In this document: in pieces, positions 28,984 to 52,023 of the stretch
Layout: each line of letters opens with the position of its first letter
Position numbering within the stretch: position 1 is the first letter of the stretch
NCBI GenBank assembly: GCA_964291265.2
Contig: OZ219747.1
Location: forward strand, 1,792,001-1,856,000
Length of the DNA stretch: 64,000 nt
Direction: 5' to 3'
Origin: Alphaproteobacteria bacterium
Lineage (GTDB): Bacteria; Pseudomonadota; Alphaproteobacteria; SP197
Program-made: the position numbers and the translations under genes
Notes under the pieces: generated by a model
Seen by the model: the letters and a program-made list of their open reading frames with translations, nothing else
Databases searched by the model: none
Told to the model about the DNA's origin: nothing

Positions 28984-29738
28984 GTCACGCTCTTCTCGGG
29001 CGGCGGCGGGCGGCGGCGGTAGGACGCTCCCTTCCACCACAGCCGGAGTGCCTGCCAGTGGATCAGCGCCGTCGTCCTTGCGGCGCCAGGTGGCCGTCGA
29101 AGGAGTGCCCTTGCGAGTTCTCGGTCGTTGAAGGGGCGGCGCGTGCCGGCGATCGCCGTGTCGAGCCCTCCACCCCTGCCATCGTCATAGATGATGCGCA
29201 CAGCGACGTTGGCCTCGTTCAGCAGGAACCGGAACCGGTACTCGCCGGCGACGTCAAGGAATGGCGAGACGTGGAAACGCTTGGCCGTCACGGTCCAGCA
29301 GTTGCGGGTGAGGTCGGAACCGTTCTCGTTCCTGCAGAGATAGCCGTGGCGGTCGCCAAAGGTGTTGTGGACCTCGGCGAGCACCGCACGAAGATTGCCG
29401 GCGGCGCCGAGGAGGAACCAGAAGCTGACCGGGTTGAACGCATAGCCCCAGTAGCGCGGATGGGTCAGCAGGAGCACGCGGTCAACGCCGCCGATCCCTT
29501 CTTCCCGCGCCAGACGGCGAAGGTCCTCGATGCCGTTGCACCCCGCAATGCCGTGATCGCTTGGCTGGAGGGAGACAATGTTGGGCCGACCGTAGGAGAA
29601 GAGTCTGGGGGTCCTCCGGGTTCCCGCGAGCTGCGCCTCGTCGAGCAAGAGGTAGTCGATGCCGTAGACGAAGCGGTTGTCCACAGGCACGCGCCGGACA
29701 TGGCTGACCCTGGCCTTGACGACCGAAGATCCCGTCAC
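28980..29738 (-). CDS. DUF1365 protein (UfaO-like)
   Basis: H.R..P...F.Y, PRYWGYAFNPVSFW, AEVHNTFGDRH, KRFHVSPF, IHWQALRLW. Confidence 0.9.
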   Translation of the reverse strand: MTGSSVVKARVSHVRRVPVDNRFVYGIDYLLLDEAQLAGTRRTPRLFSYGRPNIVSLQPSDHGIAGCNGIEDLRRLAREEGIGGVDRVLLLTHPRYWGYAFNPVSFWFLLGAAGNLRAVLAEVHNTFGDRHGYLCRNENGSDLTRNCWTVTAKRFHVSPFLDVAGEYRFRFLLNEANVAVRIIYDDGRGGGLDTAIAGTRRPFNDRELARALLRRPPGAARTTALIHWQALRLWWKGASYRRRPPPPEKSVT

Positions 29739-31030
29739 GCCCATGGCGGCGAGACCCCGAGACTTTCGGCGACCCGGACCGCGCTGGCGAGGCCATCCTC
29801 GTGAAACCCGTTGCCGGTCCACGCGCCGCAGTACCATGTGCCCGCACGGCCCTGGATCGACGGCAACGCCGCCTGGGCGGCGATCGTTGCGAAATCGTAT
29901 TGCGGATGGTCAAATGAATGTTCGTCGAGGATTCGGGAGTCATCGACAGGCGTCGAAGGGTTGAGCGTTGCGAAGAGCGGTGTTGCACGCGGGATGCTCT
30001 GGAGCGAGTTCATCCAGTAGGTGACCGACGCGCGGTCCTCGTTGGTTCGCGATGTCGCCAGGTAGACCCAGCTCGACCAGCAGGCCCTGCGCCGCGGCAT
30101 CAGCCGGGCATCGGTATGGAGCACGATGCGGTTGCGCCGGAACGGAATGCACCCGAGAACGCTCCGTTCTTCCGGTTGGGCGTCCTTGAGAATGTCCAGC
30201 ACCGTGTCGGCATGACAGGCGAACACGACACCTTCGAAACGCTCCGGCTCCTCTCCGGCCGCCTTGACGTCGACCCGGTCCGGACCCCGAGTCACCGCTT
30301 CGACAGGCGTTCGCAGTCTCAGTTCGGCTTCCATGTCGGCCGCCATCCGCGTCACGTAGCTGCGCGACCCGCCGTCGACCGTCCACCAGCGATGCTGGCC
30401 GGTAAACGAGAGCAGGCCATGATGGGCGAAGAAGCGGGTGAGGACATGGGCTGGAAAATTCAGCATCCGGGAGCGCGGCGTCGACCAGATCGCACCGCTC
30501 ATCGGCAGGAGGTAGTAGCGCTCGAACCAGGTGCCGAGCCGCCGCTTGCGAATCAGCTCGCCCAGTGTCAGGTCGGGGTCACCGCTCGCATCCGCCAGCG
30601 CGGTCCGGTTGAAAACCGCGATGTCGCGGAACATGCGCCAGAAGCCCGGCTTCAACGCATTCGACGGCTGAGCCAGTGCCGCGGTGGCGTTGCGGCACCC
30701 GTACTCCATGGCGCCCCCGTCGACGGAGACGGCGAAGGACATGTCGCTCTCCCGCACCGGCACATCGAGACGCTCGAAGAGTTGGCAGAGACTGGGATAG
30801 TTGACCCGGTTGAAGACGATGAAGCCGGTGTCGACCGACACGTCGCGCCCCTTGGTCCTGACCGTGACGGTGCGGGCATGGCCGCCTGGGCGATCCGCGG
30901 ACTCGAAGAGCACGACATCGTGGGCGCGCGACAGCAACCACGCCGCACCGAGGCCCGATATTCCAGCTCCGATCACCGCAATCCTGCGCCGCCGAGCCCC
31001 ATTGTGTGCCGAATGTCCTGTTCGCTTCAT
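29735..31030 (-). CDS. FAD-dependent oxidoreductase (UfaD-like fatty acyl desaturase)
   Basis: GAGISGL, GGHART, VDTGFIVFN, TYWMNSLQ, GAWTGNGFHEDG. Confidence 0.9.
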   Translation of the reverse strand: MKRTGHSAHNGARRRRIAVIGAGISGLGAAWLLSRAHDVVLFESADRPGGHARTVTVRTKGRDVSVDTGFIVFNRVNYPSLCQLFERLDVPVRESDMSFAVSVDGGAMEYGCRNATAALAQPSNALKPGFWRMFRDIAVFNRTALADASGDPDLTLGELIRKRRLGTWFERYYLLPMSGAIWSTPRSRMLNFPAHVLTRFFAHHGLLSFTGQHRWWTVDGGSRSYVTRMAADMEAELRLRTPVEAVTRGPDRVDVKAAGEEPERFEGVVFACHADTVLDILKDAQPEERSVLGCIPFRRNRIVLHTDARLMPRRRACWSSWVYLATSRTNEDRASVTYWMNSLQSIPRATPLFATLNPSTPVDDSRILDEHSFDHPQYDFATIAAQAALPSIQGRAGTWYCGAWTGNGFHEDGLASAVRVAESLGVSPPWA

Positions 31031-31039
31031 GGTCTGCAA

Positions 31040-31065
31040 TACGCATCAACCGCCCGGGCGGATCA
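31040..31065 (-). promoter_or_regulatory. sigmaE (ECF11) promoter for the ufaD-like operon
   Basis: Minus strand TGATCC-N16-CGTA, 9 nt before ATG at 31030. Confidence 0.85.
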
Positions 31066-31085
31066 CTGCAGGGGAGAGAAAATTG

Positions 31086-31111
31086 TGATCCGAAGCGGCG
31101 CAGGGACCGTA
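31086..31111 (+). promoter_or_regulatory. sigmaE (ECF11) autoregulatory promoter for rpoE-chrR
   Basis: TGATCC-N16-CGTA, 9 nt before ATG at 31121. Confidence 0.85.
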
Positions 31112-31120
31112 TAGAGATCC

Positions 31121-31798
31121 ATGGCACGCGCCCCGAAGGTCATCGACTTCCCCAGGAGCCCGCCTTTGCGGGGTAACGCTGCATTGGCGCCCGGGCATGC
31201 GAAAGTGGATGCAGCGCTTGATGACGAGCGGATCACCGATCCGACCGACGCCATGTCGGCCTGCCTGGTTGCGGTCGCGGAGCGGGGAGACCGCGAAGCG
31301 TTCGCGGATCTGTTCCGCCATTTCGGCCCGCGGATCAAGGGCTGGCTGCTGCGCGGCGGCGGCGAACCGGGCAAGGTTGACGATGTGCTTCAGGAGATCT
31401 TCGCCACGGTCTGGTCCAGAGCGAAGCTCTATGACAGCCGGCGGGCGAGCGCAGCCACCTGGATTTTCACCATCGCACGCAACCGGCGCATCGATGCGTT
31501 CCGTCGCGACCGCCGGCCAGAATTCGATCCCGGCGATCCGGCCTTCATGGCCGAGCCCCTGCCCGACGGCGAACAGGCGCTCGCCGGACGGCAGCGCGTG
31601 GATGCTGTTCAGGCTGCACTCGCCGCCTTGAGCGAGGAACAGCGCGAAGTTCTGCGGTTGTCGTTCGTGGACGGCGAGAGCTATGCGGCGATCGCGATCC
31701 GGCTGGGCATTCCGCTCGGCACCGTCAAGTCGCGTGCACGCCTCGCGTTCGCTCGCCTGCGCGCCGAACTCGACTCGCGAAGGGAGGAGTTGCGATGA
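31121..31798 (+). CDS. rpoE: ECF sigma factor RpoE (ECF11)
   Basis: DREAFADLF, ATWIFTIARNRRID, PLGTVKSR; directly upstream of chrR. Confidence 0.92.
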   Translation: MARAPKVIDFPRSPPLRGNAALAPGHAKVDAALDDERITDPTDAMSACLVAVAERGDREAFADLFRHFGPRIKGWLLRGGGEPGKVDDVLQEIFATVWSRAKLYDSRRASAATWIFTIARNRRIDAFRRDRRPEFDPGDPAFMAEPLPDGEQALAGRQRVDAVQAALAALSEEQREVLRLSFVDGESYAAIAIRLGIPLGTVKSRARLAFARLRAELDSRREELR

Positions 31799-32451
31799 GA
31801 ATCCGGCACCATGTCGGTGATGATCTGCTGCTCGCCTACGGGGCGGGCACCCTGGACGAGGCCATGTCGCTCATGGTCGCCACACACCTGGCGCTGTGCC
31901 CGCTCTGCCGGGCCGGTCTCGACCTGGCCGAGGCCATCGGCAGCGCCCTGATCGACAGTGCGCCGGCCGGGTCCGGGGTGGATGAGACCATGCTGGAAGC
32001 CCTCATGGAGGGTGCGGAACGCGACGACGATGCCGGTACTGCCGACCGCCCGACGCCGGTGGGACCTTGCGTGCTGCCGCAACCGCTGCGCAGCTATGCC
32101 GGCGGCGACGCCCCCGGACTCGGATGGCGCGCAGTGGGCGGCGGCATCCGGCAGTTTCCTCTCAAGACGGACCCCACAGGCGCGACGGCGCGACTCCTGT
32201 CGATTCCCGCCGGCAAAGGTGTTCCCGAACACGGCCATCGCGGGTTCGAGGCGACGCTGGTCCTCGCCGGGTCGTTCTATGACCGGGGCTCATGGTATCG
32301 GCGCGGCGATGTCGCGGTCGCCGACCCTTCGGTGATGCACCGCCCCGTGGCAGGGCCCGAGGAGGACTGCATCTGTCTTGCGGTGGCCGATGCGCGGCTC
32401 AGATTCAGGGCGCCGATCCCGCGTCTGCTGCAACCGTTTCACGGCATCTAG
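31795..32451 (+). CDS. chrR: anti-sigma factor ChrR
   Basis: N-terminal HH...HLALCPLC ZAS motif plus cupin HGHRG.E..LVL.GSF. Confidence 0.93.
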   Translation: MRIRHHVGDDLLLAYGAGTLDEAMSLMVATHLALCPLCRAGLDLAEAIGSALIDSAPAGSGVDETMLEALMEGAERDDDAGTADRPTPVGPCVLPQPLRSYAGGDAPGLGWRAVGGGIRQFPLKTDPTGATARLLSIPAGKGVPEHGHRGFEATLVLAGSFYDRGSWYRRGDVAVADPSVMHRPVAGPEEDCICLAVADARLRFRAPIPRLLQPFHGI

Positions 32452-32479: not shown

Positions 32480-32953
32480 CGAGATGCGAAGCCGCATCGT
32501 TCGGCCCTCGGGGTTGCCTTTGCCAAGGAGGTGCTCCCCGAGCTTCTGGACGCGATAACGGGCGGGCCGGTTGCGGGGAGCGCGTTCGAGCATCATATTG
32601 TGCGCTATATGACCGAGCACAAAGGCCTGACGCCGGCCATGCTGGAGGCGTCACTGCGCCGGACGAAGCCGGACCACTGGGAGGGTCTGATGGGCACGAT
32701 CGCACAATCCTGGATAGAAGAGGGAAGAGCCGAGGGACTCAAGAGGGGAAGAGCCGAGGGTATCGAACGAGGCCGGAGCGAAGCCCTCGCGGAACTTCTT
32801 CTTCGTCAACTGTCCTTGCGCTTCGGTGATGTGCCGGATGCGGTCCGCGAGCGGGTCCGCGGCGCGTCGTCCGCCGAACTGGTGGCCTGGGCGGATGCGG
32901 TGCTGGTGGCCACGAGCCTTGATGATGTGCTGGCCGCCAGGCCTAGGCACTGA
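32480..32953 (+). pseudogene. truncated Rpn (YhgA-like) gene retaining the C-terminal RpnS/DUF4351 part
   Basis: MGTIAQSWIEEG(RAEG)n...LRQLSLRFG...W...L..L.DVL; PD-(D/E)XK N-terminus missing. Confidence 0.75.
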
Positions 32954-33236: not shown

Positions 33237-35174
33237 CTCAGCAGCAGTATCACGACAAGCAATTGATTGTGTTGGCAAAACGGTACGATGATGGCTTGAG
33301 AACATTGCCATGTAACGGTGAATTTTCCCTTGACACGGTGGGCTTACGCCCCCATATACGTTGCCATGTACGTAGACATCGTCCCCAACCGTAACTCACC
33401 CCCCGCCGTCCTCCTGCGAGAGGGATGGCGCGAGAACGGCAAGGTCAAGAAGCGCACCATCGCCAATCTCTCCTCCTGGCCCATGGAAAAGGTCGAGACC
33501 CTGCGGCGGTTCTTGAAGAACGAACCCCTCGTCGGTCGTGACGACGCCTTCGACATCGTCCGCTCCCTCCCCCATGGGCATGTCGCCGCGGTGCTGGGAA
33601 CCCTGAAGAAGCTGGGACTGGACAGGTTGATCGACCCGAAGCCCTCGGCACGGCGCGATCAGGTCCTGGCCATGATCGTGGCACGCATCCTCGAGCCCGC
33701 CTCGAAGCTGGCCACGGCCAGGGGGCTGGCCGAGGCCACGGCGGTCAGCACCCTGGGCGAGGTCCTCGATGCGGAGATGGACGAGGACGCCCTCTACGGC
33801 GCCATGGACTGGCTCCTGGAGCGTCAGGAGAGGATCGAGCGGTCCCTGGCGAAGCGGCGCCTCGAAGAGGGCTGCCTGGTGCTCTATGACCTGACCTCGG
33901 TATGGATGGAGGGGAGAGCGTGTCCCCTGGCAAGGAGGGGTCATTCCCGGGATGGCAAGAAGGGCAAGCTGCAGATCGAGTTCGGCCTTCTGTGCGATCG
34001 GGACGGCTGTCCAGTGTCGGTGGAAGTGTTCCCCGGCAACACGGCGGACCCCGGGACGGTGGCATCACAGATCACCACGCTGCAGGAGCGCTTCTCCCTG
34101 GCGAAGGTGGTGCTGGTGGGAGACCGGGGGATGCTGACCGAGGCGCGCATACGCGAGGAGGTGAAGCCTGCGGGCCTGGACTGGATCAGCGCCTTGAGGG
34201 GACCGGCCATCCGCGCCCTTGTGGAGGCCGGCGACGTCGAGATGTCGCTCTTCGACGAGAGGGACCTGGTGGAGATCACCAGCGATGCGTATCCCGGCGA
34301 ACGCCTCATGGTCTGCCGCAACCCCCTGCTGGCCGAGGACCGGGCCCGCAAGCGCCAGGAGCTGCTCGAGGCCACCGAGGCCCTGCTTGAACCGATCGCC
34401 GCAGCGACACGGCGCGACAAGCGCCGTCTCAAGGGTGCCGACAAGATCGGGGAGAGGGTCGGCAAGGTCATCGGCAAGTACAAGATGGCGAAGCACTTCA
34501 CGTGGTCCATCGACGACGAGGGTGTCTTCACCTATGGGCGCGATGAGGCTGCCATCGCCGCCGAGGCCAGGCTCGACGGCCTCTACGTGATCCGCACCAG
34601 CCTGCCGCAGAGCGAGCTCGACGGTCCCGGCACGGTGCGCGCCTACAAGCGGCTGAGTTCGGTGGAACGGGCCTTCCGCAGCCTGAAGACCGTGGATCTG
34701 AAGGTCCGTCCCGTCTGTCACCGCACCGAACCCCGGGTCCGCGCCCATGTCTTCCTGTGCATGCTCGCCTACTACGTTGAATGGCACATGCGCCAGAAAC
34801 TGAAGCCCATGCTGTTCGACGACGAGGATGCCGAAGGCGCCGAGGCCCGCCGGCCGTCCGTCGTGGCGCCGGCAGAAGTCTCGGCGAGCGCCCGGGCCAA
34901 GGCGGCAACGAAGAGGACGCCCGGGGGTGATCCGGTGCACAGTTTCCGCACCCTCCTCGATGATCTCGCGACCATCACCCGCAACACCGTGGCGCCCCGC
35001 CTTGCGGGCGCCAAACCCTTCCAGGTCACCACGCGGCCCACGCCGCTCCAGAGAAGGGCGCTCAAGCTTCTGGGCGTGGAGCCGTAGTGTACTCAGTCAG
35101 ATGCTTCTGAGATCCATCGAATGTCATTCATATCAGGTACTTGCACTTGATCGGCGCTGCAACTTCGGGCTGAG
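33237..35174 (+). mobile_element. IS1634-family insertion sequence
   Basis: Transposase plus short imperfect ends CTCAGC.../...GCTGAG; no clear TSD. Confidence 0.75.
33366..35087 (+). CDS. IS1634-family DDE transposase (intact)
   Basis: LLREGWRENGKVKKRTIANLS, LYDLTS, GHSRD, VGDRGM, DGLYVIRT, VERAFRSLK, RVRAHVFLCML. Confidence 0.93.
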   Translation: MYVDIVPNRNSPPAVLLREGWRENGKVKKRTIANLSSWPMEKVETLRRFLKNEPLVGRDDAFDIVRSLPHGHVAAVLGTLKKLGLDRLIDPKPSARRDQVLAMIVARILEPASKLATARGLAEATAVSTLGEVLDAEMDEDALYGAMDWLLERQERIERSLAKRRLEEGCLVLYDLTSVWMEGRACPLARRGHSRDGKKGKLQIEFGLLCDRDGCPVSVEVFPGNTADPGTVASQITTLQERFSLAKVVLVGDRGMLTEARIREEVKPAGLDWISALRGPAIRALVEAGDVEMSLFDERDLVEITSDAYPGERLMVCRNPLLAEDRARKRQELLEATEALLEPIAAATRRDKRRLKGADKIGERVGKVIGKYKMAKHFTWSIDDEGVFTYGRDEAAIAAEARLDGLYVIRTSLPQSELDGPGTVRAYKRLSSVERAFRSLKTVDLKVRPVCHRTEPRVRAHVFLCMLAYYVEWHMRQKLKPMLFDDEDAEGAEARRPSVVAPAEVSASARAKAATKRTPGGDPVHSFRTLLDDLATITRNTVAPRLAGAKPFQVTTRPTPLQRRALKLLGVEP

Positions 35175-35510: not shown

Positions 35511-38500
35511 TCAAGCTTCCCGGCGCCCTTCGACGAACATCACGAGCGCCGGCAGCATGAACAGCGTAAAGGCGCCGGCAGCGACAAGCCCGCCGAGCAT
35601 GCTGACGACGAACGGCACGAGAGCGATGAGTCCATCGCCGCGCTCGTAGAGAAGGGGCGAGAGCCCGAGCACGGTGGTGAGCGTGGTCAGGAACACGGCG
35701 CGGAACCGGTCGCGCGTGGCACCCACCGCAGCGGCAATGGCCGGGATCCCTTCATTGTCCCGGCGAATCACGTTGTAGCGATCGAGCAACACCAGAGCGT
35801 CGTTCACGACAACGCCTCCGACACCAACGATACCGAAGACCGATGTGGCGGTCAGATTCCAGCCGAGAATCCAGTGACCGAAGATGGCCCCGGCGCAGGC
35901 GATCGGAAGGCCGACAATCACCACAACGGGTTTCCAGTAGCTGCGCAGGAAGGCCGCCATCAGGCCGTAGATCACGAGCAGGACGATGGGAACGAGGGTT
36001 CCCATCGTGGCAAGCGTGGTGCGCTCGTCCCGGGCTCCTGCGTCGAGTGAGACCGAGAGCCCGGGATACCGCGCCATCAAGTCGGGAAGGAAACTCTCGG
36101 CGATGAACCGCCGCGCCTGAATGGGCGTGATCCTGCCGATGTCCGCCCGGGCGTTGACGAGCGCCGCCCGGCGACCGTCGATCCGGGTCAGCGAGGCAAG
36201 TTCCCGCTGTTCCGTGATGTGTGCCGCGATGGACAGGGGCATGTTGCCTCCGCCAGGGATCGCAATCCGCTCGCTCGCGAGCTCCCGCAGGCTTTGCCGC
36301 CGTTCGGCCGGATATCGGACAACGACCCTGATTTCATCGCGGCCGCGTTGAATTCTCTGGACTTCAAGGCCAAGAAGATTGGCGCGCAACTGCCTGCCGA
36401 TCATCGCCGGCGTCAGCCCGGCGGCTTCACCGGCTGGGGTCAGCTGGATTTCGAGATGCCGCTTGCCGGTCGCGAGGCTGTCCGAAACCTCGTAGAGACC
36501 CGGGATCCCGGCCATGAAGGCCCTGAGTTCACCGGCTGCCTTGTGCAGGTCTTGCGGATCGTCGTGAAGGAGCGCATAGGCGACCGATGGCTGGGTCTGG
36601 ATTCGTGATGTCTCGACGGACACCGATTCCAGACCTGTGACGTGGCCGACGGCCTCGCGCCACACCCGCGCGATGACCTCCGGCGACGCTTCGCGAAACG
36701 GTCGTTCATGGAGATGCAGCCTGACCGATGCAAGGTGGCTCTTGCTCGCCTCGTGCTCGCTGGTCCGCGACAGACCGCCATCCCCCAGCCTTCCGACCAT
36801 GAGGCTGATCGATGCGATCGATGTTCCTTCGAGCTGATCGTTGATGTGCGAAGCGGCCGCAGCGAAGTGGCGGGCGGCGGCAACACTCGCCTCGAAGGGG
36901 GCTCCGGCCGGCAATCTGAGGTCCGCCTGTATGGAGTCGCTGAATGCGGCGTTCGGGTCGAGAACGACGACGCGCACCATTTCCGAACGTATCAGCGCGA
37001 GGGAAGCGATCACGAAAAGAAGGCCGAGAAGAAGGGTCAGGAAAACATGACGGATGGCCCACGAGGCCGCGGGCACCACGATCGCATCCCGCAAGTCGTT
37101 GATCCAGGCGCGTGCCCGATCCTGAATCTCGCGCAGAGGCGAAAGGCTCCAGCGTCCTTCATGCGAAAGATGCGAAGGAAGGACCCAGAACGCTTCGACG
37201 AGGGAGACGATGAGAACAAGAATGGCGACCCAGGGGATGACTTTCAGAACCTGGTAGTTTCCCGTCGTTACGTACATGAGCGGAAAGAGCGCCACGATGG
37301 TCGTGATCACGCCGACCGTCACCGGGCCGACCACGGCCCTGGCGCCTGCGATCGCCGCCTCGAGCGCGCTCCTTCCCCGTTCCCGTTCCGTCGCAATGCT
37401 CTCACCGACGACCACGGCATCGTCGACCACGATGCCGATCAACAGGAAGAGCGCGAAGACCGTTCCCATGTTGAGTGTCAGGTCCGCGACATTGAAGAAC
37501 ATCAGGGCGCCGACGAAGGAGAGGGGAATCCCGACCGTGATCCAGACTGCGACACGCAGATCGAAGGCGAGAACGAGACAGAAGAACACCAGGATCGCTC
37601 CGACGACGCCGTTGCGCACGATTTCCGAGAGCCTCTCGAAGGTCGGCTCCGCCCTGTCGTTCCAGATGTCCACATCGACACCCGCCGGAGGCCTGTAGTC
37701 CGCGAGCCATTCCTTGACGCTGTCCGAGATCACGGCCAGAGACTGCTCGTCGGTGGCCTCGACACGAACGAGTATCGACGGTCTCCCGTCAACCTCAAGC
37801 AGCAGCTCCTCATCGACAAAGCCGTCGCGAATTGTCGCAAGCTCGCCGAGCCTCAGGGTTGTGCCGTCGCGCCGGGTGATGATGGCGATGTCCTCGAACT
37901 CCTCGCCATGTCTGCGCTTGTCGACCGCATGGAGGACCACACCGCCGGCGCCGGTGCGCAGCTCGCCGAACGTGAGGTTGAGGGAAGACCGCCGCACCTT
38001 GCTTGCGACCTCGGCGAGAGACAGGTCGTTGCGGCGCAACTCCTCTTCATTCAGTTCAATGGCGACCTCCCGGTCGCGGGCGCCTCTCAGCCGGATCTGG
38101 GAGACGGCCGGCAGAGCCAGAAGATCGTCGCGAATGCCCTCCGTCACGTGACGCAATGCGTCCTCGGACAGAGTCGACGACGACACCGAGAGCGTCAGCA
38201 CCTCGGGCGTGAGTTCCTTGAGCTCGACCTCGGGCGGTTCGGCGCTCACGGGCGGAAAGTTCTCGATACCGTCGATTGCGTTTCGGACACTGTCCAGCAC
38301 GGCGGCTATATCGGCGAAGGTGTCGACCTCGACCTCGACCCGGGAGAGACCTTCCGACGCGACGCCCACCACCCGGGCCACACCCGGGAGTCCGACCACG
38401 CTTTCCTCGATGCGGCGATTGATGTCCTCCTCGACCTCCGCGGGAGAGGATCCCGGCGATGACACGGTGACGCTGATCGTGCGCAAGTCGATGTTCGGAA

Positions 38501-38615
38501 AGTACTGGACGGGAAGATCGAAACCCGCGAGGACGCCTCCCAGGATCAGGAACATCATCAGGACCGTGGAGGCGACCGGGTTGCCGGCAAAGTAGGCAAT
38601 GGCTCCGTTTTTCAC
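35511..38615 (-). CDS. AcrB/AcrD/AcrF-family RND permease
   Basis: 1034 aa; GIVVDDAVVVGE (TM4), GVVVNDALV, RFRAVFLTTLTT. Confidence 0.93.
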   Translation of the reverse strand: MKNGAIAYFAGNPVASTVLMMFLILGGVLAGFDLPVQYFPNIDLRTISVTVSSPGSSPAEVEEDINRRIEESVVGLPGVARVVGVASEGLSRVEVEVDTFADIAAVLDSVRNAIDGIENFPPVSAEPPEVELKELTPEVLTLSVSSSTLSEDALRHVTEGIRDDLLALPAVSQIRLRGARDREVAIELNEEELRRNDLSLAEVASKVRRSSLNLTFGELRTGAGGVVLHAVDKRRHGEEFEDIAIITRRDGTTLRLGELATIRDGFVDEELLLEVDGRPSILVRVEATDEQSLAVISDSVKEWLADYRPPAGVDVDIWNDRAEPTFERLSEIVRNGVVGAILVFFCLVLAFDLRVAVWITVGIPLSFVGALMFFNVADLTLNMGTVFALFLLIGIVVDDAVVVGESIATERERGRSALEAAIAGARAVVGPVTVGVITTIVALFPLMYVTTGNYQVLKVIPWVAILVLIVSLVEAFWVLPSHLSHEGRWSLSPLREIQDRARAWINDLRDAIVVPAASWAIRHVFLTLLLGLLFVIASLALIRSEMVRVVVLDPNAAFSDSIQADLRLPAGAPFEASVAAARHFAAAASHINDQLEGTSIASISLMVGRLGDGGLSRTSEHEASKSHLASVRLHLHERPFREASPEVIARVWREAVGHVTGLESVSVETSRIQTQPSVAYALLHDDPQDLHKAAGELRAFMAGIPGLYEVSDSLATGKRHLEIQLTPAGEAAGLTPAMIGRQLRANLLGLEVQRIQRGRDEIRVVVRYPAERRQSLRELASERIAIPGGGNMPLSIAAHITEQRELASLTRIDGRRAALVNARADIGRITPIQARRFIAESFLPDLMARYPGLSVSLDAGARDERTTLATMGTLVPIVLLVIYGLMAAFLRSYWKPVVVIVGLPIACAGAIFGHWILGWNLTATSVFGIVGVGGVVVNDALVLLDRYNVIRRDNEGIPAIAAAVGATRDRFRAVFLTTLTTVLGLSPLLYERGDGLIALVPFVVSMLGGLVAAGAFTLFMLPALVMFVEGRREA

Positions 38616-38659: not shown

Positions 38660-39832
38660 CTAATCCGCAGCCGGTGCGGCTGAGACCTCGAGACCCTCTC
38701 GCGCATCCGGCAGGGGACCGACCACCACGCCTTCGCCCGCGTCGAACGCCTCGACGATCCAGCCGTCCGAGGTGCGCCCCACCGTGTCGGGAACCGTCGC
38801 TCGCAGAACGCCATCCCTGACGGTCCAGACCGCGCCGTGTTCCCGGGCGGCCGACTCAGGTAGCACATAGACATCGCCAAGCACGGGCCCCGTGATGGCA
38901 ACCTCGGCGAAGGCGCCCGGCAGCGGAAGGGAATCCTGCTGCGAGACCTCAGAGAACTCGAGAAACAGAGAAGCAAGACGAGTCCGGGGCGCCACCACCG
39001 ACGATACACGCACCACGGTGGCCCGGTGTGTGCCTGCGTCCGTGCGGATCGACGCGGATCGGCCAATCACGGGAGCGAGATCGTCCAGGACAGCCTGCTC
39101 GACCGGTGCGCGAACCTGCAGTGCGGAGGGCTGATAGACGACACCCAGAAGCGCGGCCGGCCCGACTGTTTCCTCGGGGCCTGCCAGGGCGCCGACATCG
39201 AGTTCCGACGACACCACCCGGCTCGCATAGGGTAGAGAGATGTTCGTGCGCGACAACCGGAGCTCCGCCAGCGCCAGAGCCGCCCGCGCCCCGCCGAGCA
39301 TGGCCTCCGCCGCGGCGACCGAAGGCGGATTCCGGACATGATCGGGGACATCCATCTCCGGGCCCTCCCGCTCGACAGACCTCGCGGCTTCCTCCGCCCG
39401 GGCCATCTCGGACCTCAGCCGGGCCTCGGCTTCCGAGACTGCCATGGCGGCGGCCTCGACTTCTATCATGAATTCGGCCGGATCGATTCTGACGAAGGTC
39501 TCATTGGCCGGAATCGATCCCCCGTCAATGAAGTCGGGGGACACCCACACCACCCGGCCGACGACATCGGACACCACTCCCACCTTTCTTCCCAGGGTCA
39601 CCGAACCTGTCAGATCGAACGTGAGGGCATGCTCGGTCGATACCGGCTGGATGACGTTCACGACGGGTGTGGCCCGCTCCGGCCCCGAGATGGTTTCGCG
39701 CGGGGCCCGATCGGGCGACCTGGCGAAATAGAGGGCCATCGCGACTACGGCAAGGATCACGGCCAGTTGAACGAGGCCAAGCCAGCGTGGCTTCCGGGAA
39801 CGGGCGGTGGATTTCGTGGAGTCCTGTGACAT
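38660..39832 (-). CDS. RND periplasmic adaptor (MFP)
   Basis: N-terminal TM, V.G.V lipoyl half, alpha-hairpin, LSRTNI..P, RVSSVVAPRTR. Confidence 0.88.
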   Translation of the reverse strand: MSQDSTKSTARSRKPRWLGLVQLAVILAVVAMALYFARSPDRAPRETISGPERATPVVNVIQPVSTEHALTFDLTGSVTLGRKVGVVSDVVGRVVWVSPDFIDGGSIPANETFVRIDPAEFMIEVEAAAMAVSEAEARLRSEMARAEEAARSVEREGPEMDVPDHVRNPPSVAAAEAMLGGARAALALAELRLSRTNISLPYASRVVSSELDVGALAGPEETVGPAALLGVVYQPSALQVRAPVEQAVLDDLAPVIGRSASIRTDAGTHRATVVRVSSVVAPRTRLASLFLEFSEVSQQDSLPLPGAFAEVAITGPVLGDVYVLPESAAREHGAVWTVRDGVLRATVPDTVGRTSDGWIVEAFDAGEGVVVGPLPDAREGLEVSAAPAAD

Positions 39833-40031
39833 CGCTCTTTCCGGTCTCAAGTTCAGCTGGTGCGCCACCGATTTGGCGAGGATACGGGCAGGCTTGCGCT
39901 ACGCGCCGACGACAACGCTTCATCGATCTGTGAATCCGGACGCTTCCGGGAGCTGTTCATCCCTGCCGCAGTACTCCGGCGAGCAACGGCGAACCGGTCG
40001 CAGACGGCTGACCCGGGAGCGCGGCGCTGCA

Positions 40032-42530
40032 TCAGGCGGCCTCCATCAGAGCATCGATATGCGCGGCGGTCCGCCTGGCCGTTTCCATCGCCAATACCTG
40101 AAGTTCGTCGATACTGCCGGCATCGCAGGCGCGTGCGATCATCGCCCGGCAGGAGTCATCGAGACCGCTCTCTTCCAGGTCGCCGTCGACCACCAGAGGG
40201 CGGACACCGTCCAGATTCAGCCACAACCGCGCCGCATCGACCAGGTCATCCGCCACGCTCGTGTCGACTGCCTTGAGCTCACCCGCCGCCTTGAAGACCT
40301 CGGAGACCCCCTCGGCCTTCAGAATCGGGGGATGCTCTTCGGCGGAGCGCAGGCGCAGCAGCAGGGTGGCCAGCAGGATGTCCGCGAGACCGCCGGGTCC
40401 GTTCAGGATGGAGGATAGTGACGGGTCGCCGGCTCCGGGCTGCGGGCGCTGGCCGGGGAGTTCGTGTACTGCGGCGTCCGCATGACGCATCAGGACGGTT
40501 CGCCTTGCACGGTGGAAGTGCCGCTCGAGTCCTGCCGCGCCTTCTCCCGTGACATGGACAAGCCGCGCGGACGCGACCTCCGCCAGGGTATCGGCGTCGC
40601 GCTTCTCGCCGGCCAGCGCCTCCAGCTGGGCACCGGCGTTGCCCCGCTGTCCGCATGGCGGGCGCATCGCGACCGATCGAAGAAGCAGGCTCTCCTCCGC
40701 CAGGTCGGCGAGAAGCGCGTTGAGCTTCCCGCACATCGCTGCGGCATGGTCATCCGGCGCGAACCTGCCATCTCCAGGCTCCGTTCCTTCGTAGAGGAGA
40801 AGGAGCTCGACATCCGACCTCATCGTCATGCGGCGGTCGCCGAGCCTGCCGAGCGCCGCGATGGCAACCCCGCTGGCGGCGACCGGGCCGTAGCGGCTCT
40901 TGAGGTCGTCGAGGACACTTCTTGCGACTGCAGAGATGGCCACCTCCGCCATGTTGGAAAGCGGCAGTCCGGCATCGACGGGGAGGATGTCCCCCCGCAT
41001 GGTTCTGACCCCCGCCTGAAACGCACAGGCGTTGCTCCAGAACTGCACGGACTCGACGACATCCTCGCTGGTTTCGACGCCGGAGAGGGCGAGTTCCGCG
41101 GTCATCTCCTCGCGGCCGAACTCGCGGGTATAGTATAGCCGCAGGAGGCCGCGCTGAGCGGCCAGCGCCACGTCGGGCTCCAGTCCGATGTTCTCCGGAA
41201 TGATCAGTTGCTGGAACTCCCGGCCTTCTATTCCATCGAGCAGGAGGGGCCGCCTTTCCATCCAGTCAGCAAGTCGGGGAGTGCTGCGAAACGTCTCGGC
41301 GATGACCGGGAGCGAAGCCGGCCGTTCCCGGTATGCACGGCTGCAAAGGGCACGCCAGTCCTCGCTGCCCATGTTCGGATAGAATCTGCTCCGCCATTCG
41401 TCGATCAGCGGGTCCATCTTCCGGAACCAGGCGGAAGGACGATGCGCAAGAAGGGCCATCGCCCGGTAGTCCGCCGGAAACCGTGGAGCGACTTCCTCGG
41501 GGTAGTCCTGCAGCAGCGGGTACGGTCGCGCCGGATGCTGGTGATGGTCGGAATGACGCTGGCTGCAAAACAGGAGGTAATCCATCGAATCGGAAAAACT
41601 CCAGGAATGGTGAGGTCTGACCTGTTCGTACCGCCCGTTCGGCAACCGGCAGCGTTGCAGCCCGTAGTGCTGCATGTAGTCGAGGACGCGCACCGTGTAC
41701 ATGCCGTGCAGAGCCTGGAGCACCCAGACGGCGAGACCCAGCCACCCGGCGATCGTCAGTGAGAGGCCGATCCAAAGGGCCAGTTTGGCCGCCCAGCGCC
41801 AACAGGGATTCGACAGGTGCCAGACCGGAAGGCCGCGGCGGGCCAGGCGTCCGCATTGAAGGCGCGCCGCCTCGACATAGCTGATCAGGCTGGTCTTGAG
41901 AAAGAAGTCGTGGAAGCTCTGTCCTTGCGCCGGGCGCGTGTAGTCCAGCGGCGTGGCCACATGGGGATGATGGACATAGAGATGTTCTGTGTACCAGTGC
42001 GGCATCGCTATCACGCTCATCAGAACGTCGCCCAGACGCCGCGTCCACTTGTCGCGCCGGTGCAGCATCTCATGGCCGACGCTGACACAAAAGACGGAGA
42101 CCTGGACCAGGATGGCAACCAAAGCGATCCGCTCGTAGACGGTCAGGCTCGGCGAGTTGGCGACCGACCAGATCGTCAGGATGACCACCGACGGATAGGA
42201 GAGCATCCACGCCCACAAGACAGCCGTGTGCCAGAACAGCCGCGAGCGCGGCGTGTGCGTGTCGAGCACCGGGACGCCGCGCTTCACCAGCAGGCCGGTG
42301 AGCGTCATGTACGGCAGCAGGGGAAGCACGACCCAGGGAATGACCCAGGGGATGAACTCGGGCACCGCGTCGAGGGCCATTGCCGCCAGGACCGGCACGA
42401 TGAGCAGCGACCATGCGAACGGAAGAGCGCCGAAGAAGCCGACACTCCTTGCACCGGGACCGTTCAGGGCCGGCGTCCGGACCGTGCGTTCGCCTGACTG
42501 CGATGCAGTCACCGGCAGGCCATGCCCCAT
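40032..42530 (-). CDS. AlkB-type membrane di-iron hydroxylase fused to a GlnE adenylyltransferase-like C-terminal domain
   Basis: His boxes HEMLH, EHLYVHH, QHYGL, QRHSDHH; then PRLADWMERRPLLLD, LSNMAE, LGRLGDRRMTMRSDVELLLLY, GPGGLADI; one continuous frame; start uncertain (42530 or 42572). Confidence 0.85.
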   Translation of the reverse strand: MGHGLPVTASQSGERTVRTPALNGPGARSVGFFGALPFAWSLLIVPVLAAMALDAVPEFIPWVIPWVVLPLLPYMTLTGLLVKRGVPVLDTHTPRSRLFWHTAVLWAWMLSYPSVVILTIWSVANSPSLTVYERIALVAILVQVSVFCVSVGHEMLHRRDKWTRRLGDVLMSVIAMPHWYTEHLYVHHPHVATPLDYTRPAQGQSFHDFFLKTSLISYVEAARLQCGRLARRGLPVWHLSNPCWRWAAKLALWIGLSLTIAGWLGLAVWVLQALHGMYTVRVLDYMQHYGLQRCRLPNGRYEQVRPHHSWSFSDSMDYLLFCSQRHSDHHQHPARPYPLLQDYPEEVAPRFPADYRAMALLAHRPSAWFRKMDPLIDEWRSRFYPNMGSEDWRALCSRAYRERPASLPVIAETFRSTPRLADWMERRPLLLDGIEGREFQQLIIPENIGLEPDVALAAQRGLLRLYYTREFGREEMTAELALSGVETSEDVVESVQFWSNACAFQAGVRTMRGDILPVDAGLPLSNMAEVAISAVARSVLDDLKSRYGPVAASGVAIAALGRLGDRRMTMRSDVELLLLYEGTEPGDGRFAPDDHAAAMCGKLNALLADLAEESLLLRSVAMRPPCGQRGNAGAQLEALAGEKRDADTLAEVASARLVHVTGEGAAGLERHFHRARRTVLMRHADAAVHELPGQRPQPGAGDPSLSSILNGPGGLADILLATLLLRLRSAEEHPPILKAEGVSEVFKAAGELKAVDTSVADDLVDAARLWLNLDGVRPLVVDGDLEESGLDDSCRAMIARACDAGSIDELQVLAMETARRTAAHIDALMEAA

Positions 42531-42619
42531 GTCCTGGGCTGCCGCCCGTGCCGGCGGCACGGCTTCAAGCATCCCGACCCCGGCCAGGGTTGGCCCGGCA
42601 GTGCGCAGGCAGGACGCAT

Positions 42620-45071: not shown

Positions 45072-46118
45072 ATGGCTGAAGATGCCGGACACGCGTCGCC
45101 GGTATTCGTATTGAACTCCGGGCGCTGCGGATCGACCATGTTGTCGAACATTCTGAACTCCCACCCCGGCATTCTCAGCCTGTCCGAGTTCTTCGCGTTC
45201 CACGGCACGGCCATGTTTCGCCGCCGCCGACTGACGGGAGACCGCATGTGGGACACCCTCAGCCGGCAATCGGGGTGGACCCGCTTCATGTTGAGAGGGC
45301 GGATCGACGAGATCCTGTATCCGCTGGACGCTCCGCAGAGCCGCTATTCGCACGTGGATGTGCCTCCCATCCTGTGCACGACGCTTCCGCACATCACGAA
45401 CCGCTGCGAAGAACTCTTCGACGAAATGGAGCCGGTCGTCCGGGGCCTGCCCCGCCGGACGACCGAGGAGCAGCTGCGCGCCGTGTTCGATTGGCTGCGC
45501 CAACGGACCGGCGCCAGGGTCTGGGTCGAGCGTTCCGGTGGCTCTGCAACCTACGCAGGCACCCTGCTCAACCGGTTCCCGGATGCCCGGATCGTGCACC
45601 TCTTCCGTGACGGGCGCGAAACCGCCCTCTCGATGATGGACCACGCCAGCTTCCGCAACGCCATGGTCTATCTCCTCGCCCTGCGCAAACGCGGCTACGA
45701 CCCGCTGAAGCGTAAGGCGTGGAACAGCCCATTCTGGGATATGGTCTCGCTGAATCTGGATCCTGTGATCTATGTGCTTCTCCTGCCGAAACCGGTTCCC
45801 TGCGACCAGTTGAGGCTGACCGATTTTGGAACGATGTGGAGCGATCTGGTCGTCCGCTCGCTCGACGTCATCGACCGTCTGCCTGCCGAGAGGGTGCTGA
45901 ACCTCTCCCTCGAGAATGTCGTGACGCAGCCCGAGAGGGAATTGAGACGACTCATTCGCTTCATCGATCCAGGGCTGGAAGACGACGAGTGGGTCGCCGA
46001 GGCAGCGAAGAGACCGCGGCAGGAACGCTCCGCAGCAGGGGACCTGGATCCGGCGGAGCGCGAGGCGCTGACCCAGGCGTGCCGTCCCGGCCTCGAACGC
46101 CTCGGCTATGACGTCTAG
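45072..46118 (+). CDS. PAPS-dependent sulfotransferase
   Basis: 5'-PSB GRCGSTML and 3'-PB HLFRDGRETALS. Confidence 0.88.
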   Translation: MAEDAGHASPVFVLNSGRCGSTMLSNILNSHPGILSLSEFFAFHGTAMFRRRRLTGDRMWDTLSRQSGWTRFMLRGRIDEILYPLDAPQSRYSHVDVPPILCTTLPHITNRCEELFDEMEPVVRGLPRRTTEEQLRAVFDWLRQRTGARVWVERSGGSATYAGTLLNRFPDARIVHLFRDGRETALSMMDHASFRNAMVYLLALRKRGYDPLKRKAWNSPFWDMVSLNLDPVIYVLLLPKPVPCDQLRLTDFGTMWSDLVVRSLDVIDRLPAERVLNLSLENVVTQPERELRRLIRFIDPGLEDDEWVAEAAKRPRQERSAAGDLDPAEREALTQACRPGLERLGYDV

Positions 46119-46169: not shown

Positions 46170-46299
46170 CTTGTCGAGAGGCGATGTCGCGCTCTGGGAC
46201 AACCGCTTTACCTTGTACTGCGCCGCCTTTGACCATGGTCACCACGACCGGATCATGCATCGTGTGACGCTGAAAGGGTCACGTCCTTTCGCTGCCTGA
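46170..46299 (+). pseudogene. TauD/TfdA dioxygenase C-terminal fragment
   Basis: GDVALWDNRFT......RIMHRVTLKG. Confidence 0.75.
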
Positions 46300-47129
46300 C
46301 GCCGACGAGCCCGGGCCTGGCGGCAGCGGGTCGCCGCTGGCCTCCAGGGTGCCCTCGGCGTCGCGCTGTTCGTCTCCCGTCAACGCCGGGCAGAAGACGG
46401 ACAGGGGGTGAAGATCGCTTCGGGCATGCATGCTGTGGCGGTCTTCGGGGCCGACGCAGTACATCATTCCCGGTTCCATGCTCCAGGTTTCCCCGGAGCC
46501 AAGGTCCTTCACCTCTCGCGTGCCGTCGAGAACGTAGTTTGCCTCCCGGTGGTGCCTGTACCACAGGATGTTGCGATTGCCCGCCGCGAGGCGGACGTCA
46601 CTGAGGGAGAACCCGACACGGTCCTCACGCAAGAGCATGCGCACCGTCGTTGCGCTGCCGCTGGCGACGACGAGCTGGCGTCCCTGGCCAACGAGTTCGT
46701 CGACGGTCCTCACGAACATGCACTCCCGGCCTTCGGGAACGGGGCCGGTCGGCGGATAGGCACCGTCGCTGTCGTGAGATTCGTCTCCGGCAAGGGGCGG
46801 ATTGAAGACGCTGACGACATGGAGCGCATCGTCGACGACGAGGCGCCGGTCGGTCGGTCCAACCGTATAGAGGGTGCCCGGAGCCAGCCGCCAGCTCCGG
46901 TCCCGTTCAAGGTCTCGCACCGTGCCCGTGCCGGCGACAACGTAGTTCGCTTCCCAGTGATTCCTGTACCACAGGACGCCGGACGTGCCGTCGGCGAGGC
47001 GTACGTCCGACATGGTGAAACCCATGCCGTCGAGGATGGTGAGAAACCGTGTCGAGCGGACCCTGCCGTCGCTCAGGACCTTTTTTCGGCGCCGACGCGG
47101 CGCCGTTCGTCAAGGGTGCGGATGAACAT
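46279..47129 (-). pseudogene. tandem (two-domain) ectoine-synthase EctC-like cupin, frameshifted near the 5' end
   Basis: Two units MF(I/V)RT..., GF...., WY.(N/H)H.EANYV, VF(N/C)P.L.GDE....G; GAGGAGG RBS; frameshift at or near the A6 tract 47081-47086. Confidence 0.78.
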
Positions 47130-47139
47130 GTCAGCCTCC

Positions 47140-48303
47140 TCACGAGGAAACGGGTTCGTCCGGCAGGGCGTTGCTGCCGGTGATGCGGCGGGCGAGATAC
47201 TGGCAGAACTCGAAGTTGGGACGTTCCAGATAACTCAGGTGTCCGGGGCGTGCCAGGCCGGACCTGGCGCCGTTGAACACGGCTTCGGTTCCCAACCGAT
47301 CCTCCTCGTTGACGGCATCGAGAATCCTCTTGGTCTCGGCGATGTGTTCGGCTCCCAGCGGATCGTTGATGAAATCGGGCGCCATGCCGCCGCCGTAGAG
47401 AATCCTCACCCTGCCGGCGCCTTCCGGCTGCAGTGACAGATACCAGAAGTACCCCGGAGTCAGGGTGATCATGTGGCTGGGGTAGATGGTGATCAGCGCC
47501 GTGGTCCTGCGCCACTCGCCCTCAAGATAGGTGCAGTCGGGATGGGCGTTGGCAAGGGGGAAGTCGGATTCCTTGGTGATCCAGTGATAGTTGAACACCG
47601 CGCCTCCCGCCGGCATTTCCATCTCTCCGACTTTTGACCGGTTGCCGATGGTGCCGCGGTGGAGCTGGAAGAGGTGATAGCTCTCCATGAAGTTCTCGGC
47701 CAGAATCTTCCAGTTGGTCTCCCAGACATGCTCTTCGCGGAAGGTCTCGATGTAGTCGGCGAAGCGGTAGCGTCCCGTGACGATTTCCCCCACCGGCCGA
47801 AACAGGACTTCCGGCGGCGGAATGTCGGGATCGAGCGTGACGTAGATCCAGCCATCCCAGACATCGCAGCGTACGCGGGCAAGGCAGTAGTCGCGCTTGT
47901 CGAAGGCCGGGCTTGCATCCATCCACGGGGCATGGCGCAGGCGGCCGTCGAGGCCGTAGGACCAGGCATGGTAGGGGCAGGTAATGACCTTGCGGTTGCC
48001 GCGTCCGGCAAGGAGCAGGCTCATCCGGTGCAGGCAGACGTTGGAGAAGGCCCTGACCTCTCCGGCATGGTCGCGCACGATGAAGATCGGCTCGTCGACG
48101 AGCCTGAAGGTGAGAAAGTCGCCCCTTTCCGGAATGGCATCGGCCCGGCCGGCACAGATCCATTCCCTGGAGAACACCCGCTCCCTTTCCAGGGCCAGGA
48201 ACGCCTCGCTGGAATAGATGCCGGGAGGTGCGGCCCGCGCTTCGGCGAAGGAACGTTCCGCGTTGGTCTTCAGTTCGCCAAGGAGTGTCGCGATTGCCGC
48301 CAT
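47140..48303 (-). CDS. Rieske non-heme iron oxygenase alpha subunit (choline/betaine-type)
   Basis: NVCLHR...CPYHAWSY Rieske motif; NWKILAENFMESYHL...H; EED. Confidence 0.92.
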   Translation of the reverse strand: MAAIATLLGELKTNAERSFAEARAAPPGIYSSEAFLALERERVFSREWICAGRADAIPERGDFLTFRLVDEPIFIVRDHAGEVRAFSNVCLHRMSLLLAGRGNRKVITCPYHAWSYGLDGRLRHAPWMDASPAFDKRDYCLARVRCDVWDGWIYVTLDPDIPPPEVLFRPVGEIVTGRYRFADYIETFREEHVWETNWKILAENFMESYHLFQLHRGTIGNRSKVGEMEMPAGGAVFNYHWITKESDFPLANAHPDCTYLEGEWRRTTALITIYPSHMITLTPGYFWYLSLQPEGAGRVRILYGGGMAPDFINDPLGAEHIAETKRILDAVNEEDRLGTEAVFNGARSGLARPGHLSYLERPNFEFCQYLARRITGSNALPDEPVSS

Positions 48304-49250: not shown

Positions 49251-49766
49251 CTAACTGGTACCTCTGTCCTCCGCCAGAACCATGCGGCCGACGGCCCTGT
49301 TGTGCCAGCTTCTTGTGTATGCATCTCTCAGAACCGGGTTGGACCGGTGACCGGCTTCTTCGAGCAATTTTTCCAGGGACACCAGCCGGTCGCGGAATCC
49401 GAGCCGGACCCCGCAGCGCAGGCTGGCACTGTCCGGTCCGCATAGCAGCCAGGCATCGTCCCGATGGATCGCGTGCGCCCAAAGCGAGGCCTCGCCGCGG
49501 TCCAGCGCGATGTCGGGCACCCGCACGCCCAGTTCGGTACGCTGGCGAGCCCCGACGGTGTGAACCGTCTTCAGCGATGCGCGCAACTCCAGGATGTCGA
49601 TCCGCCGCTGCGGCCGTCGGCGCTGAAATCCGGTCTGGGTTTCCGTCACGCAGTCCTCGACGGTTTCGACCGGATAGCCGCCCGTCAGAGCCCGCCACGA
49701 ACCCGTGCGGTGGCATTCGAGAATGACGTTCGTGTCCACCAGCACCGGGCCGTGGTGTCGCGCCAT
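49251..49766 (-). CDS. PIN-domain-like protein (putative toxin)
   Basis: VLVDTNVIL, E in ETQTG, LDRGEAS, LCGPD acidic tetrad. Confidence 0.7.
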   Translation of the reverse strand: MARHHGPVLVDTNVILECHRTGSWRALTGGYPVETVEDCVTETQTGFQRRRPQRRIDILELRASLKTVHTVGARQRTELGVRVPDIALDRGEASLWAHAIHRDDAWLLCGPDSASLRCGVRLGFRDRLVSLEKLLEEAGHRSNPVLRDAYTRSWHNRAVGRMVLAEDRGTS

Positions 49767-49772
49767 CGCCGT

Positions 49773-50879
49773 TCACAGCTCGACAGGAATTTCGACCCCG
49801 TGCGTTGCGCACAAGTCTCCGAACTCGTCGATTGTCGAACCGAGCAATTCCGCCACGCGCCGCATCGAGACATGGCCGTCCAGGATGGCAAGGCAGAGAA
49901 CCTCCACGAACGGCCTGGAATACAGGGCAGGCGTTACGCCCCCCGCCACTTCCCGGCCGTTGTTGCGCAAGGCCGCCTCGGGCACGGCGCGCGCCACGGA
50001 CGGTTTCAGTTGGCCGAGCGCAACCAGCCGCCAGCGCAGCGCCGAGGACGTCACGCGCAGCTCGTCCGCCACGGCGTTCAGCCGGTCGATCAACCCTTCC
50101 TCGCCCAGAGACGTCCAGCCTCCGCGCCGCTGAAGCGTCGCCGCCGGCATCAGCACCGCCGCGGCGAAATTGTTGGCGAGCTGCTCCACCCGATTGCCGC
50201 CGGTCTCCCGTGCCTCTTCGGAATGCTCCGGCGGCATCGCATCCCACGTCAGGATATGAAACAGTTCGTGCGCCAGATCGAAATGACGGCGCCCTTCGAC
50301 TTCTCGGCGCGCGATCAGGACCGTGTCCAGTTCGGGCAGGCGGCAGGCCGCCCCGGAAATCCCTTCGCTGGCATCCACCATGAGGACCAGAATGCCCAAT
50401 TCCTGCTCCATGACCCCGGCCAGGCCGGTTGCCGGGGCTTCGCCGAGGCCGAACTCGGACACAAAACGCTCCCCGGCCGACATGGCGTCCTCGAAGCGCG
50501 AAGTGCGAGCCAGGCCCAGCGCCCGGCGCATCAGCGGGAGCTCGCGCCCGACCTTCGGCGCCAGCGCGCGAAACGCCGCGATCCAACGGCCGGCGCTGAG
50601 CTCGTATTTGCCGAGCTGCGCAGCGCCGGTCCCCGTATGCCTCCACGAGAAACGGCCTTCGCCGACGAGCCGGAACGGGTCCGTGAAATAGTCGAGCGGC
50701 ACCTCCAGCCTTTCCAGTACGCGCACCAGTTCATCCGCCGAGACACGCCGCGCGCCGGTTTCGATGGCCGAAACAGTCTGTCGGTCGTTGAAACCGAACA
50801 GCTGCGCAAGATCGTCTTGGGAGAACTTGCGCTCCTCGCGCAGCGCCCTGAGTCGCGTACCGATCAGTGGTGTGGACAT
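49773..50879 (-). CDS. XRE HTH + ImmA/IrrE (COG2856) Zn metallopeptidase
   Basis: IGTRLRALRE..SQDDLA...TVSAIETG; RRHFDLAHELFH; EQLANNFAAAVLMP. Confidence 0.92.
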   Translation of the reverse strand: MSTPLIGTRLRALREERKFSQDDLAQLFGFNDRQTVSAIETGARRVSADELVRVLERLEVPLDYFTDPFRLVGEGRFSWRHTGTGAAQLGKYELSAGRWIAAFRALAPKVGRELPLMRRALGLARTSRFEDAMSAGERFVSEFGLGEAPATGLAGVMEQELGILVLMVDASEGISGAACRLPELDTVLIARREVEGRRHFDLAHELFHILTWDAMPPEHSEEARETGGNRVEQLANNFAAAVLMPAATLQRRGGWTSLGEEGLIDRLNAVADELRVTSSALRWRLVALGQLKPSVARAVPEAALRNNGREVAGGVTPALYSRPFVEVLCLAILDGHVSMRRVAELLGSTIDEFGDLCATHGVEIPVEL

Positions 50880-50891
50880 GATGGCCTCCCG

Positions 50892-50927
50892 ATTGCAATA
50901 TATTCTTGCACCCTGCGAATTGCAATA
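50892..50927. promoter_or_regulatory. two palindromic ATTGCAAT boxes, putative XRE operators
   Basis: ATTGCAATA at 50892 and 50919, AT-rich, just upstream of the XRE gene. Confidence 0.55.
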
Positions 50928-51014
50928 CAACCAGGCTGGTCCCAGGCCAAGGTCGAGGTTCGCCCAGCGGCCCGGTACCCGCCCGCCTGGCGCAGGGCCC
51001 GCTGGCGGCCTTGA

Positions 51015-51147
51015 AGGCAACGCCTTCGCGTCGTCGGTGACGAGTTCCGCCCGGTCGCGCGCCCGGCTGATCTCGACGTGGAAGCTCTTCTGCGTGGTGA
51101 AATGCGGAAGGTTCGCCTCCATGGCGACGATCACATTGTCGACGGAT
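51015..51147 (-). pseudogene. TrwC/TraI relaxase-helicase C-terminal fragment
   Basis: VDNVIVAMEANLPHFTTQKSFHVEISRARDRAELVTDD (helicase motif VI). Confidence 0.75.
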
Positions 51148-51890: not shown

Positions 51891-52023
51891 AACTACTGCG
51901 CCGTCCCGGGAAGCAGTCAGTCCCTGCAGGAGTTCATGTGTCAATGCAAACGGCTGCTCATGCGTGCCCTTCGGCGACGCTCCCAGAAGGACTGCACCGA
52001 ATGGAGGGACATCGACACTCTTA

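Follow-up and report, generated by a model that had tools for sequence, protein, structure and literature searches.

A GlnE repeat predicted to be catalytically dead, fused to AlkB-like membrane oxygenases and likely to be a portable module

A gene at positions 40032..42572 (−) of the window, a 64,000-nucleotide stretch of contig OZ219747.1 (positions 1,792,001 to 1,856,000) from the alphaproteobacterial assembly GCA_964291265.2, encodes a protein of 846 amino acids (aa) in which an AlkB-like membrane di-iron oxygenase is joined to a GlnE repeat that, judged by its motifs, is catalytically dead; ATG at 42530 or later is an alternative start. We conclude that this AlkB–GlnE fusion is a real, unpublished variant architecture, and that its most surprising feature is a portable dead module. 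An earlier note on this DNA had proposed such a fusion with an intact frame under selection and eroded GlnE signatures, and these points were borne out. A first homologue search returned 41 proteins, 22 of which (query included) contain both domains, and the pooled set comprises 84 distinct full fusions, which greedy clustering reduces to 45 clusters at 90% identity, 25 at 70% and 11 at 50%. No description of the fusion, or of glnE in sponge symbionts, was found in the literature covered, which did not include the original paper on srp (sponge-derived proteusin) clusters for ribosomally synthesized peptides with post-translational modifications (RiPPs), where the gene may be labelled.

The membrane domain occupies residues 45-400 (41373..42440, −) and the GlnE module residues 402-846 (40035..41369, −), the latter making up one whole structural repeat of GlnE. 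Within the module lies a lineage-specific insertion composed of an acidic loop and a conserved helix (residues 452-484; 41121..41219, −), which adds about 25 residues to ordinary GlnE and is absent from GlnE of the other genera of the family. The predicted structure has the GlnE repeat fold, with a nucleotidyltransferase pocket fold predicted at local distance difference test scores (pLDDT) mostly of 84-94. By profile comparison the module is a single repeat scoring 99 bits against 724 for the NCBIfam cut-off, whereas GlnE has two repeats and ~950-1000 aa. The genome also carries a separate intact glnE (1000 aa, C2:3533921), the presence of which the earlier note had left to be checked, and a second copy of the fusion with 45% identity (C2:4190831-4193257).

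G-x11-D-x-D is the catalytic motif of this nucleotidyltransferase fold (PMC12234641, PMC12409994); a third catalytic Asp was defined here by its conservation in 152/155 GlnE. The results showed that in the query the motif is degraded to G575...D587-V-E589 (40806..40850, −) and that both the third Asp and the RxRP motif are missing from their position (residues 634-639; 40656..40673, −). The complete Asp triad was found in none of the 45 long fusion clusters, even with two residues of alignment slip tolerated, and in none of the six short or 80 RND-fused clusters, while it is complete in 61/134 insertion-bearing GlnE and in all 21 ordinary GlnE. D-x-D is kept in two of the 45 long fusions and in no RND-fused copy. 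Because the triad is never complete among the fused clusters, the suggestion that the protein is a novel AMPylator is unsupported. Compared with GlnE (E. coli 3k7d, 1v4a; PRK14108), the query module has a broken triad, lacks the de-adenylylating half, carries the 25-residue insertion and is tethered to a membrane protein.

Selection on the fusion was estimated as Nei-Gojobori ratios of nonsynonymous to synonymous substitution rates (dN/dS) with codon bootstraps for six disjoint gene pairs, in three of which dS is near saturation. The ratios were 0.05-0.28 for the AlkB domain, 0.06-0.29 for residues 401-545, 0.18-0.46 for the catalytic core and 0.35-0.44 for the C-terminal part, and every bootstrap interval lay below 1. 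For native GlnE, four pairs drawn from eight of these genomes gave ratios of 0.01-0.08 for the equivalent of residues 401-545 and 0.04-0.08 for the core; the former is the most conserved part, tied with the core in one pair. These data show that the catalytic core has been under relaxed selection since the fusion and that the insertion-bearing subdomain is about as constrained as the oxygenase.

The insertion also marks a large group of soluble GlnE proteins. Of 134 such sequences, which include many near-copies and hence cannot count as independent, 131 retain both motifs of the de-adenylylating half intact. In a module tree of 86 sequences, thinned at 72% identity from 214, supported only by the Shimodaira–Hasegawa-like approximate likelihood ratio test and containing long branches, the AlkB-fused modules form one clade (98) and the RND-fused modules another (100), and the two are sisters (100). 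Both nest within the insertion-bearing GlnE, beside members with a damaged triad, and the query genome's own glnE is placed elsewhere, apart from the fused modules. The results indicate that the fused module descends from an insertion-bearing GlnE lineage. It was also observed that the adenylylating triad is broken in 73/134 members of this lineage (L055:7760-10762; P0222-P0334), with the de-adenylylating half intact; such proteins would be one-way enzymes. A second two-domain GlnE-like gene in the query genome (G000:C1:121792-123885; L003, L004) lacks the insertion, and its second domain is likewise eroded.

The 50% library contained two RND pumps with the same GlnE-module tail. When the cores of an RND-fused module and of a short AlkB-fused module served as queries, 105 proteins were retrieved, mainly RND fusions of ~1520 aa. 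In total, 80 full-length clusters of RND-module fusions were obtained, including five earlier finds. The pumps of this family are AcrB-type, and the 430-residue dead GlnE repeat forms their C-terminal tail on the cytoplasmic side (P0201, P0143, P0327, P0330-P0332, P0400-P0490; L180:9992-14566), and the named members are all Gammaproteobacteria metagenome-assembled genomes (MAGs). The tail follows directly on the last membrane helix, and its breakpoint nearly coincides with that in the AlkB fusions. Conservation of the insertion helix extends to all four groups, soluble GlnE included. At L180, the sole locus of this family that was read, an adaptor gene precedes the pump. In the short AlkB fusions, which form six clusters (606-640 aa), the module is reduced to the linker, the insertion, the helical bundle and the first strand. 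The occurrence of the same half on efflux pumps makes it likely that it is a portable docking or control module, serving enzymes and pumps whose predicted role is the synthesis and export of hydrophobic natural products.

The oxygenase half has the AlkB fold with transmembrane helices and displays the three His boxes, the HYG motif and the nine His ligands (H167, 171, 197, 201, 202, 302, 340, 343, 344) typical of AlkB/membrane fatty acid desaturase-like proteins; the nine ligands are invariant in 50/50 fusions. Its structural identity to FtAlkB (PDB 8f6t, an AlkB-rubredoxin fusion, and 8sbb) is ~22%. Work on FtAlkB describes a di-iron centre of nine His plus Glu271, assigns that Glu to iron binding and proton transfer, and reports six arginines that dock rubredoxin (PMC10113152); elsewhere the same Glu is termed conserved yet poorly resolved (PMC10110569). 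In the query the Glu is replaced by Q301, giving DYMQHYG in place of the NYxEHYG of AlkB alkane 1-monooxygenase, and Gln also occupies the position in several unfused relatives. We take XylM to have Gln there as well, which our searches did not confirm. Four of the six docking arginines are kept (R173, R178, R245 and R314) and two are replaced (Y199 and Q317), as mapped by hand from the alignment with the residues checked. Rubredoxin (PF00301) gave no matches in the query genome (G000, 100% complete), the control being positive in 7/14, and eight Fer2 matches were found there. Thus, we infer that the oxygenase half works like AlkB in its chemistry, yet it departs from strict AlkB in two respects, the Glu and a rubredoxin donor, either fused or encoded in the genome. 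The C-terminal partner in 8f6t is an electron carrier, rubredoxin, whereas in the query it is a dead GlnE repeat, and a survey of AlkB fusions names, in the portion available, only rubredoxin and ferredoxin-reductase partners, which are electron carriers (PMC4021335). Also unlike AlkB alkane 1-monooxygenase, the query gene has tailoring and export genes as neighbours. A small 2Fe-2S ferredoxin encoded at 14020-14259 (+) of the window might donate electrons to the P450 and the oxygenase.

The fused oxygenase halves form a single clade (support 95), sister to stand-alone Rhodobacterales genes (99). These AlkB-like relatives share 32-40% identity with the fused halves across most of the domain; in contrast to the fusions, they stop at ~370-380 aa, retain the Glu and, in the loci read, lie among housekeeping genes.

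The fusion is present in 12/23 genomes of the query's genus and in 0/10 genomes of the family's other four genera. Of 400 other genomes sampled class-wide, seven contain the module: three as the long fusion, one as a short fusion plus a GlnE-length frame and three as a GlnE-length frame alone. A phylum-wide sample gave module matches in 0/400 genomes. Named carriers are Alphaproteobacteria, Rhodobacteraceae, Paracoccaceae, Defluviicoccus and Acidobacteriota MAGs. This patchy taxonomic range suggests horizontal spread of the fusion. Judging from its relatives, the host is presumably sponge-associated.

At the query locus, a membrane-fusion (adaptor) protein gene (38660..39868, −; HlyD_3) lies downstream of the fusion, followed by an AcrB-type RND permease gene without the module (35511..38615, −; 1034 aa), whose product matches the pump portion of the module-fused RND P0201 better than any other in the genome (32%). 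On the other side, a cytochrome P450 gene (43693..44961, +) is divergent from the fusion and a sulfotransferase gene (45072..46118, +; Sulfotransfer_3) stands next. The order P450, fusion, adaptor, pump is the same in genome G018 (P450 identity 70%), where the surrounding 40 kb also contain a second fusion and cysDN. Twenty-four fusion loci were fetched: five of the query subfamily (from three genomes), 18 of the other subfamily and one short-form locus. The query-subfamily loci contain a sulfotransferase (5/5), an RND pump (4/5), an Ntn acylase (4/5), MATE (3/5), P450 (2/5) and cysNC (2/5), and YcaO was found at none of the five. In the other subfamily YcaO occurs at 14/18 loci, often adjacent, and several loci encode NHLP precursors ending in LCCCW, which two sources give as the srp core (bioRxiv 10.1101/2023.06.09.544420; PMC10858898); srp clusters are reported from sponge microbiomes (PMC9426513). 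Genes of this sister subfamily adjoin YcaO or lie close to it, together with LCCCW precursors, and a Trp halogenase is present in one of the clusters, whereas the query locus lacks YcaO and precursor and has P450, sulfotransferase and RND pump genes instead. Neither YcaO nor an NHLP precursor was found near the second copy or in window positions 30001-52000, and both YcaO matches of the genome fall on contig C1. The single short-form locus contains none of these marker genes.

Taken together, we consider, on balance, that the dead repeat most likely docks a putative protein partner through residues 401-545 and thereby holds in position or gates the membrane protein. It would do so with the linker, the insertion and the helical bundle as its working surface, and the same surface may serve three N-terminal domains, namely the de-adenylylating half of insertion-bearing GlnE, the AlkB-like oxygenases and the RND pumps. 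The di-iron oxygenase would oxygenate (or desaturate) a hydrophobic chain of a secondary metabolite, with electrons probably coming from an acidic, soluble carrier that is not rubredoxin, for instance a 2Fe-2S ferredoxin. At the query locus the product would be further oxidised by the P450, sulfated by the sulfotransferase and exported by the RND pump, and in srp clusters the oxygenase would target the peptide's lipid or prenyl portion. A wider scenario, which we hold tentatively as plausible rather than probable, is that a GlnE lineage gained the 25-residue insertion, its adenylylating half died, and this half went on, as a portable control module in the cytoplasm, to be attached to unrelated membrane proteins (di-iron oxygenases and RND pumps) and to spread over phyla of probably sponge-associated bacteria, placing natural-product tailoring and export, including that of srp peptides, under a shared docking signal.

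Several observations weigh against the favoured reading of a docking module on a working oxygenase. The Gln in place of the AlkB Glu occurs in 46/50 fusions, compared with Glu in 72/73 motif matches of the stand-alone relatives (76 loci), and oxygenase activity may be altered or weak as a consequence. An acidic-x-acidic pair remains in 27/45 long fusions, which speaks against the pocket being wholly lost. When the query is paired with its closest partner, from G018, dN/dS is flat over the first three regions (0.28, 0.29 and 0.29), so that the gradient depends chiefly on the remaining pairs. Long branches could help the sister grouping of the AlkB- and RND-fused modules. No AlkB-like gene was seen among the called genes of L180, as judged by sequence with no family scan, implying that the two fusion types need not work together. 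Finally, the five sulfotransferase loci derive from only three genomes.

The alternative that the module is a nitrogen-status sensor, still binding PII, glutamine synthetase or glutamine and switching the oxygenase and the pumps by nitrogen supply, is unlikely. It draws on the ancestry of the module in GlnE, which PII controls (PMC12409994). It is also favoured by the position of the module C-terminal of an output domain in all three architectures, by the full-length dead half that insertion-bearing GlnE retains beside its de-adenylylating motifs, and by a genome with glnB-glnA and an intact glnE. However, glnA gave no match in any of the 24 fusion neighbourhoods, the short forms lack most of the catalytic core, and the module begins at about E. 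coli residue 520, past the PII site, which lies at ~466-507 of E. coli GlnE. The query genome's single PII gene adjoins glnA, far from both fusion genes, and the fusions instead have natural-product genes around them. Thus, of the earlier proposal of a repurposed module tied to nitrogen status, a non-catalytic repurposed module stands as the best reading, and the tie to nitrogen status is possible but unsupported.

We likewise doubt that the module is an entrenched structural appendage that stabilises or solubilises the cytoplasmic face with no specific partner and is slowly decaying in its distal part. The increase of dN/dS with distance from the membrane domain, the deletions and truncations falling in the distal part and the patchy conservation past residue 545 favour this view, but two unrelated membrane proteins took up the module with breakpoints that almost coincide, even soluble GlnE shares the conserved insertion helix, and most clusters keep the whole 430 residues. 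Binding of a small molecule in the remnant nucleotidyltransferase pocket, either a pathway product or an adenine nucleotide such as adenosine tri- or monophosphate (ATP, AMP) or 3′-phosphoadenosine 5′-phosphate (PAP), appears highly improbable: the pocket fold is predicted, G575 is kept in 41/45 and the acidic pair in more than half of the long clusters, and the query subfamily lies beside sulfotransferases, with cysNC in two genomes, but it is in the pocket that selection is relaxed most relative to native GlnE, the acidic pair is present in 0/80 RND-fused copies and little of the pocket remains in the short forms. That the module works as an AMPylase on a new target, as for SidM/DrrA of the same fold, is hardly credible, since the AMPylase domain of SidM/DrrA retains G-x11-D-x-D and is active whereas the query module does not retain it and no fused copy has the triad.

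In these proteins a textbook signalling enzyme can be followed on its way to a probably mobile pseudoenzyme module, with the intermediate stages visible: insertion, loss of catalysis in full-length GlnE, two membrane-family fusions and truncation. The analysis also picks out a so far unstudied family of membrane oxygenases that recurs in srp clusters and in a sulfotransferase-P450-RND cluster, and this regularity makes the missing tailoring step and the final products of these clusters testable.

Some further features of the srp-linked loci were observed. A protein of 370-390 aa without a Pfam match is encoded in one or two copies beside YcaO at 13/18 loci (L048:14857-16035, L045:34-2339, L047:1989-5265), and a 430-450-aa protein has an NHLP-like leader followed by a weak squalene-cyclase/prenyltransferase match (L048:11037-12365, L176:11627-12970). 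In P0123 a peptidase-ABC transporter is joined to the final part of a fusion-type oxygenase, probably through a deletion or an assembly join within an srp cluster. Near a short-form fusion, three tandem near-identical open reading frames of 99-125 aa encode an N-terminal hydrophobic helix (L175:3198-4351).

In the window itself, a tandem two-domain ectoine-synthase-like cupin gene adjoins a Rieske oxygenase alpha subunit gene (46279-47025, −, and 47140-48303, −). A gene for a helix-turn-helix and IrrE/ImmA-type peptidase protein is followed by a small gene (49251-51134, −), presumably PIN-like. Positions 33318-35087 (+), 51936-53255 (+) and 32531-32953 (+) hold, near the cluster, what are by resemblance presumably two transposase-like genes and a short Rpn-like fragment. 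A glutamine-synthetase-family gene is split over two frames with a stop (7127-8006, −); the genome has 15 Gln-synt_C matches. Finally, an FAD amine-oxidase-like gene at 29735-32451 lies opposite two genes, presumably for an ECF sigma factor and a ChrR-like anti-sigma factor.
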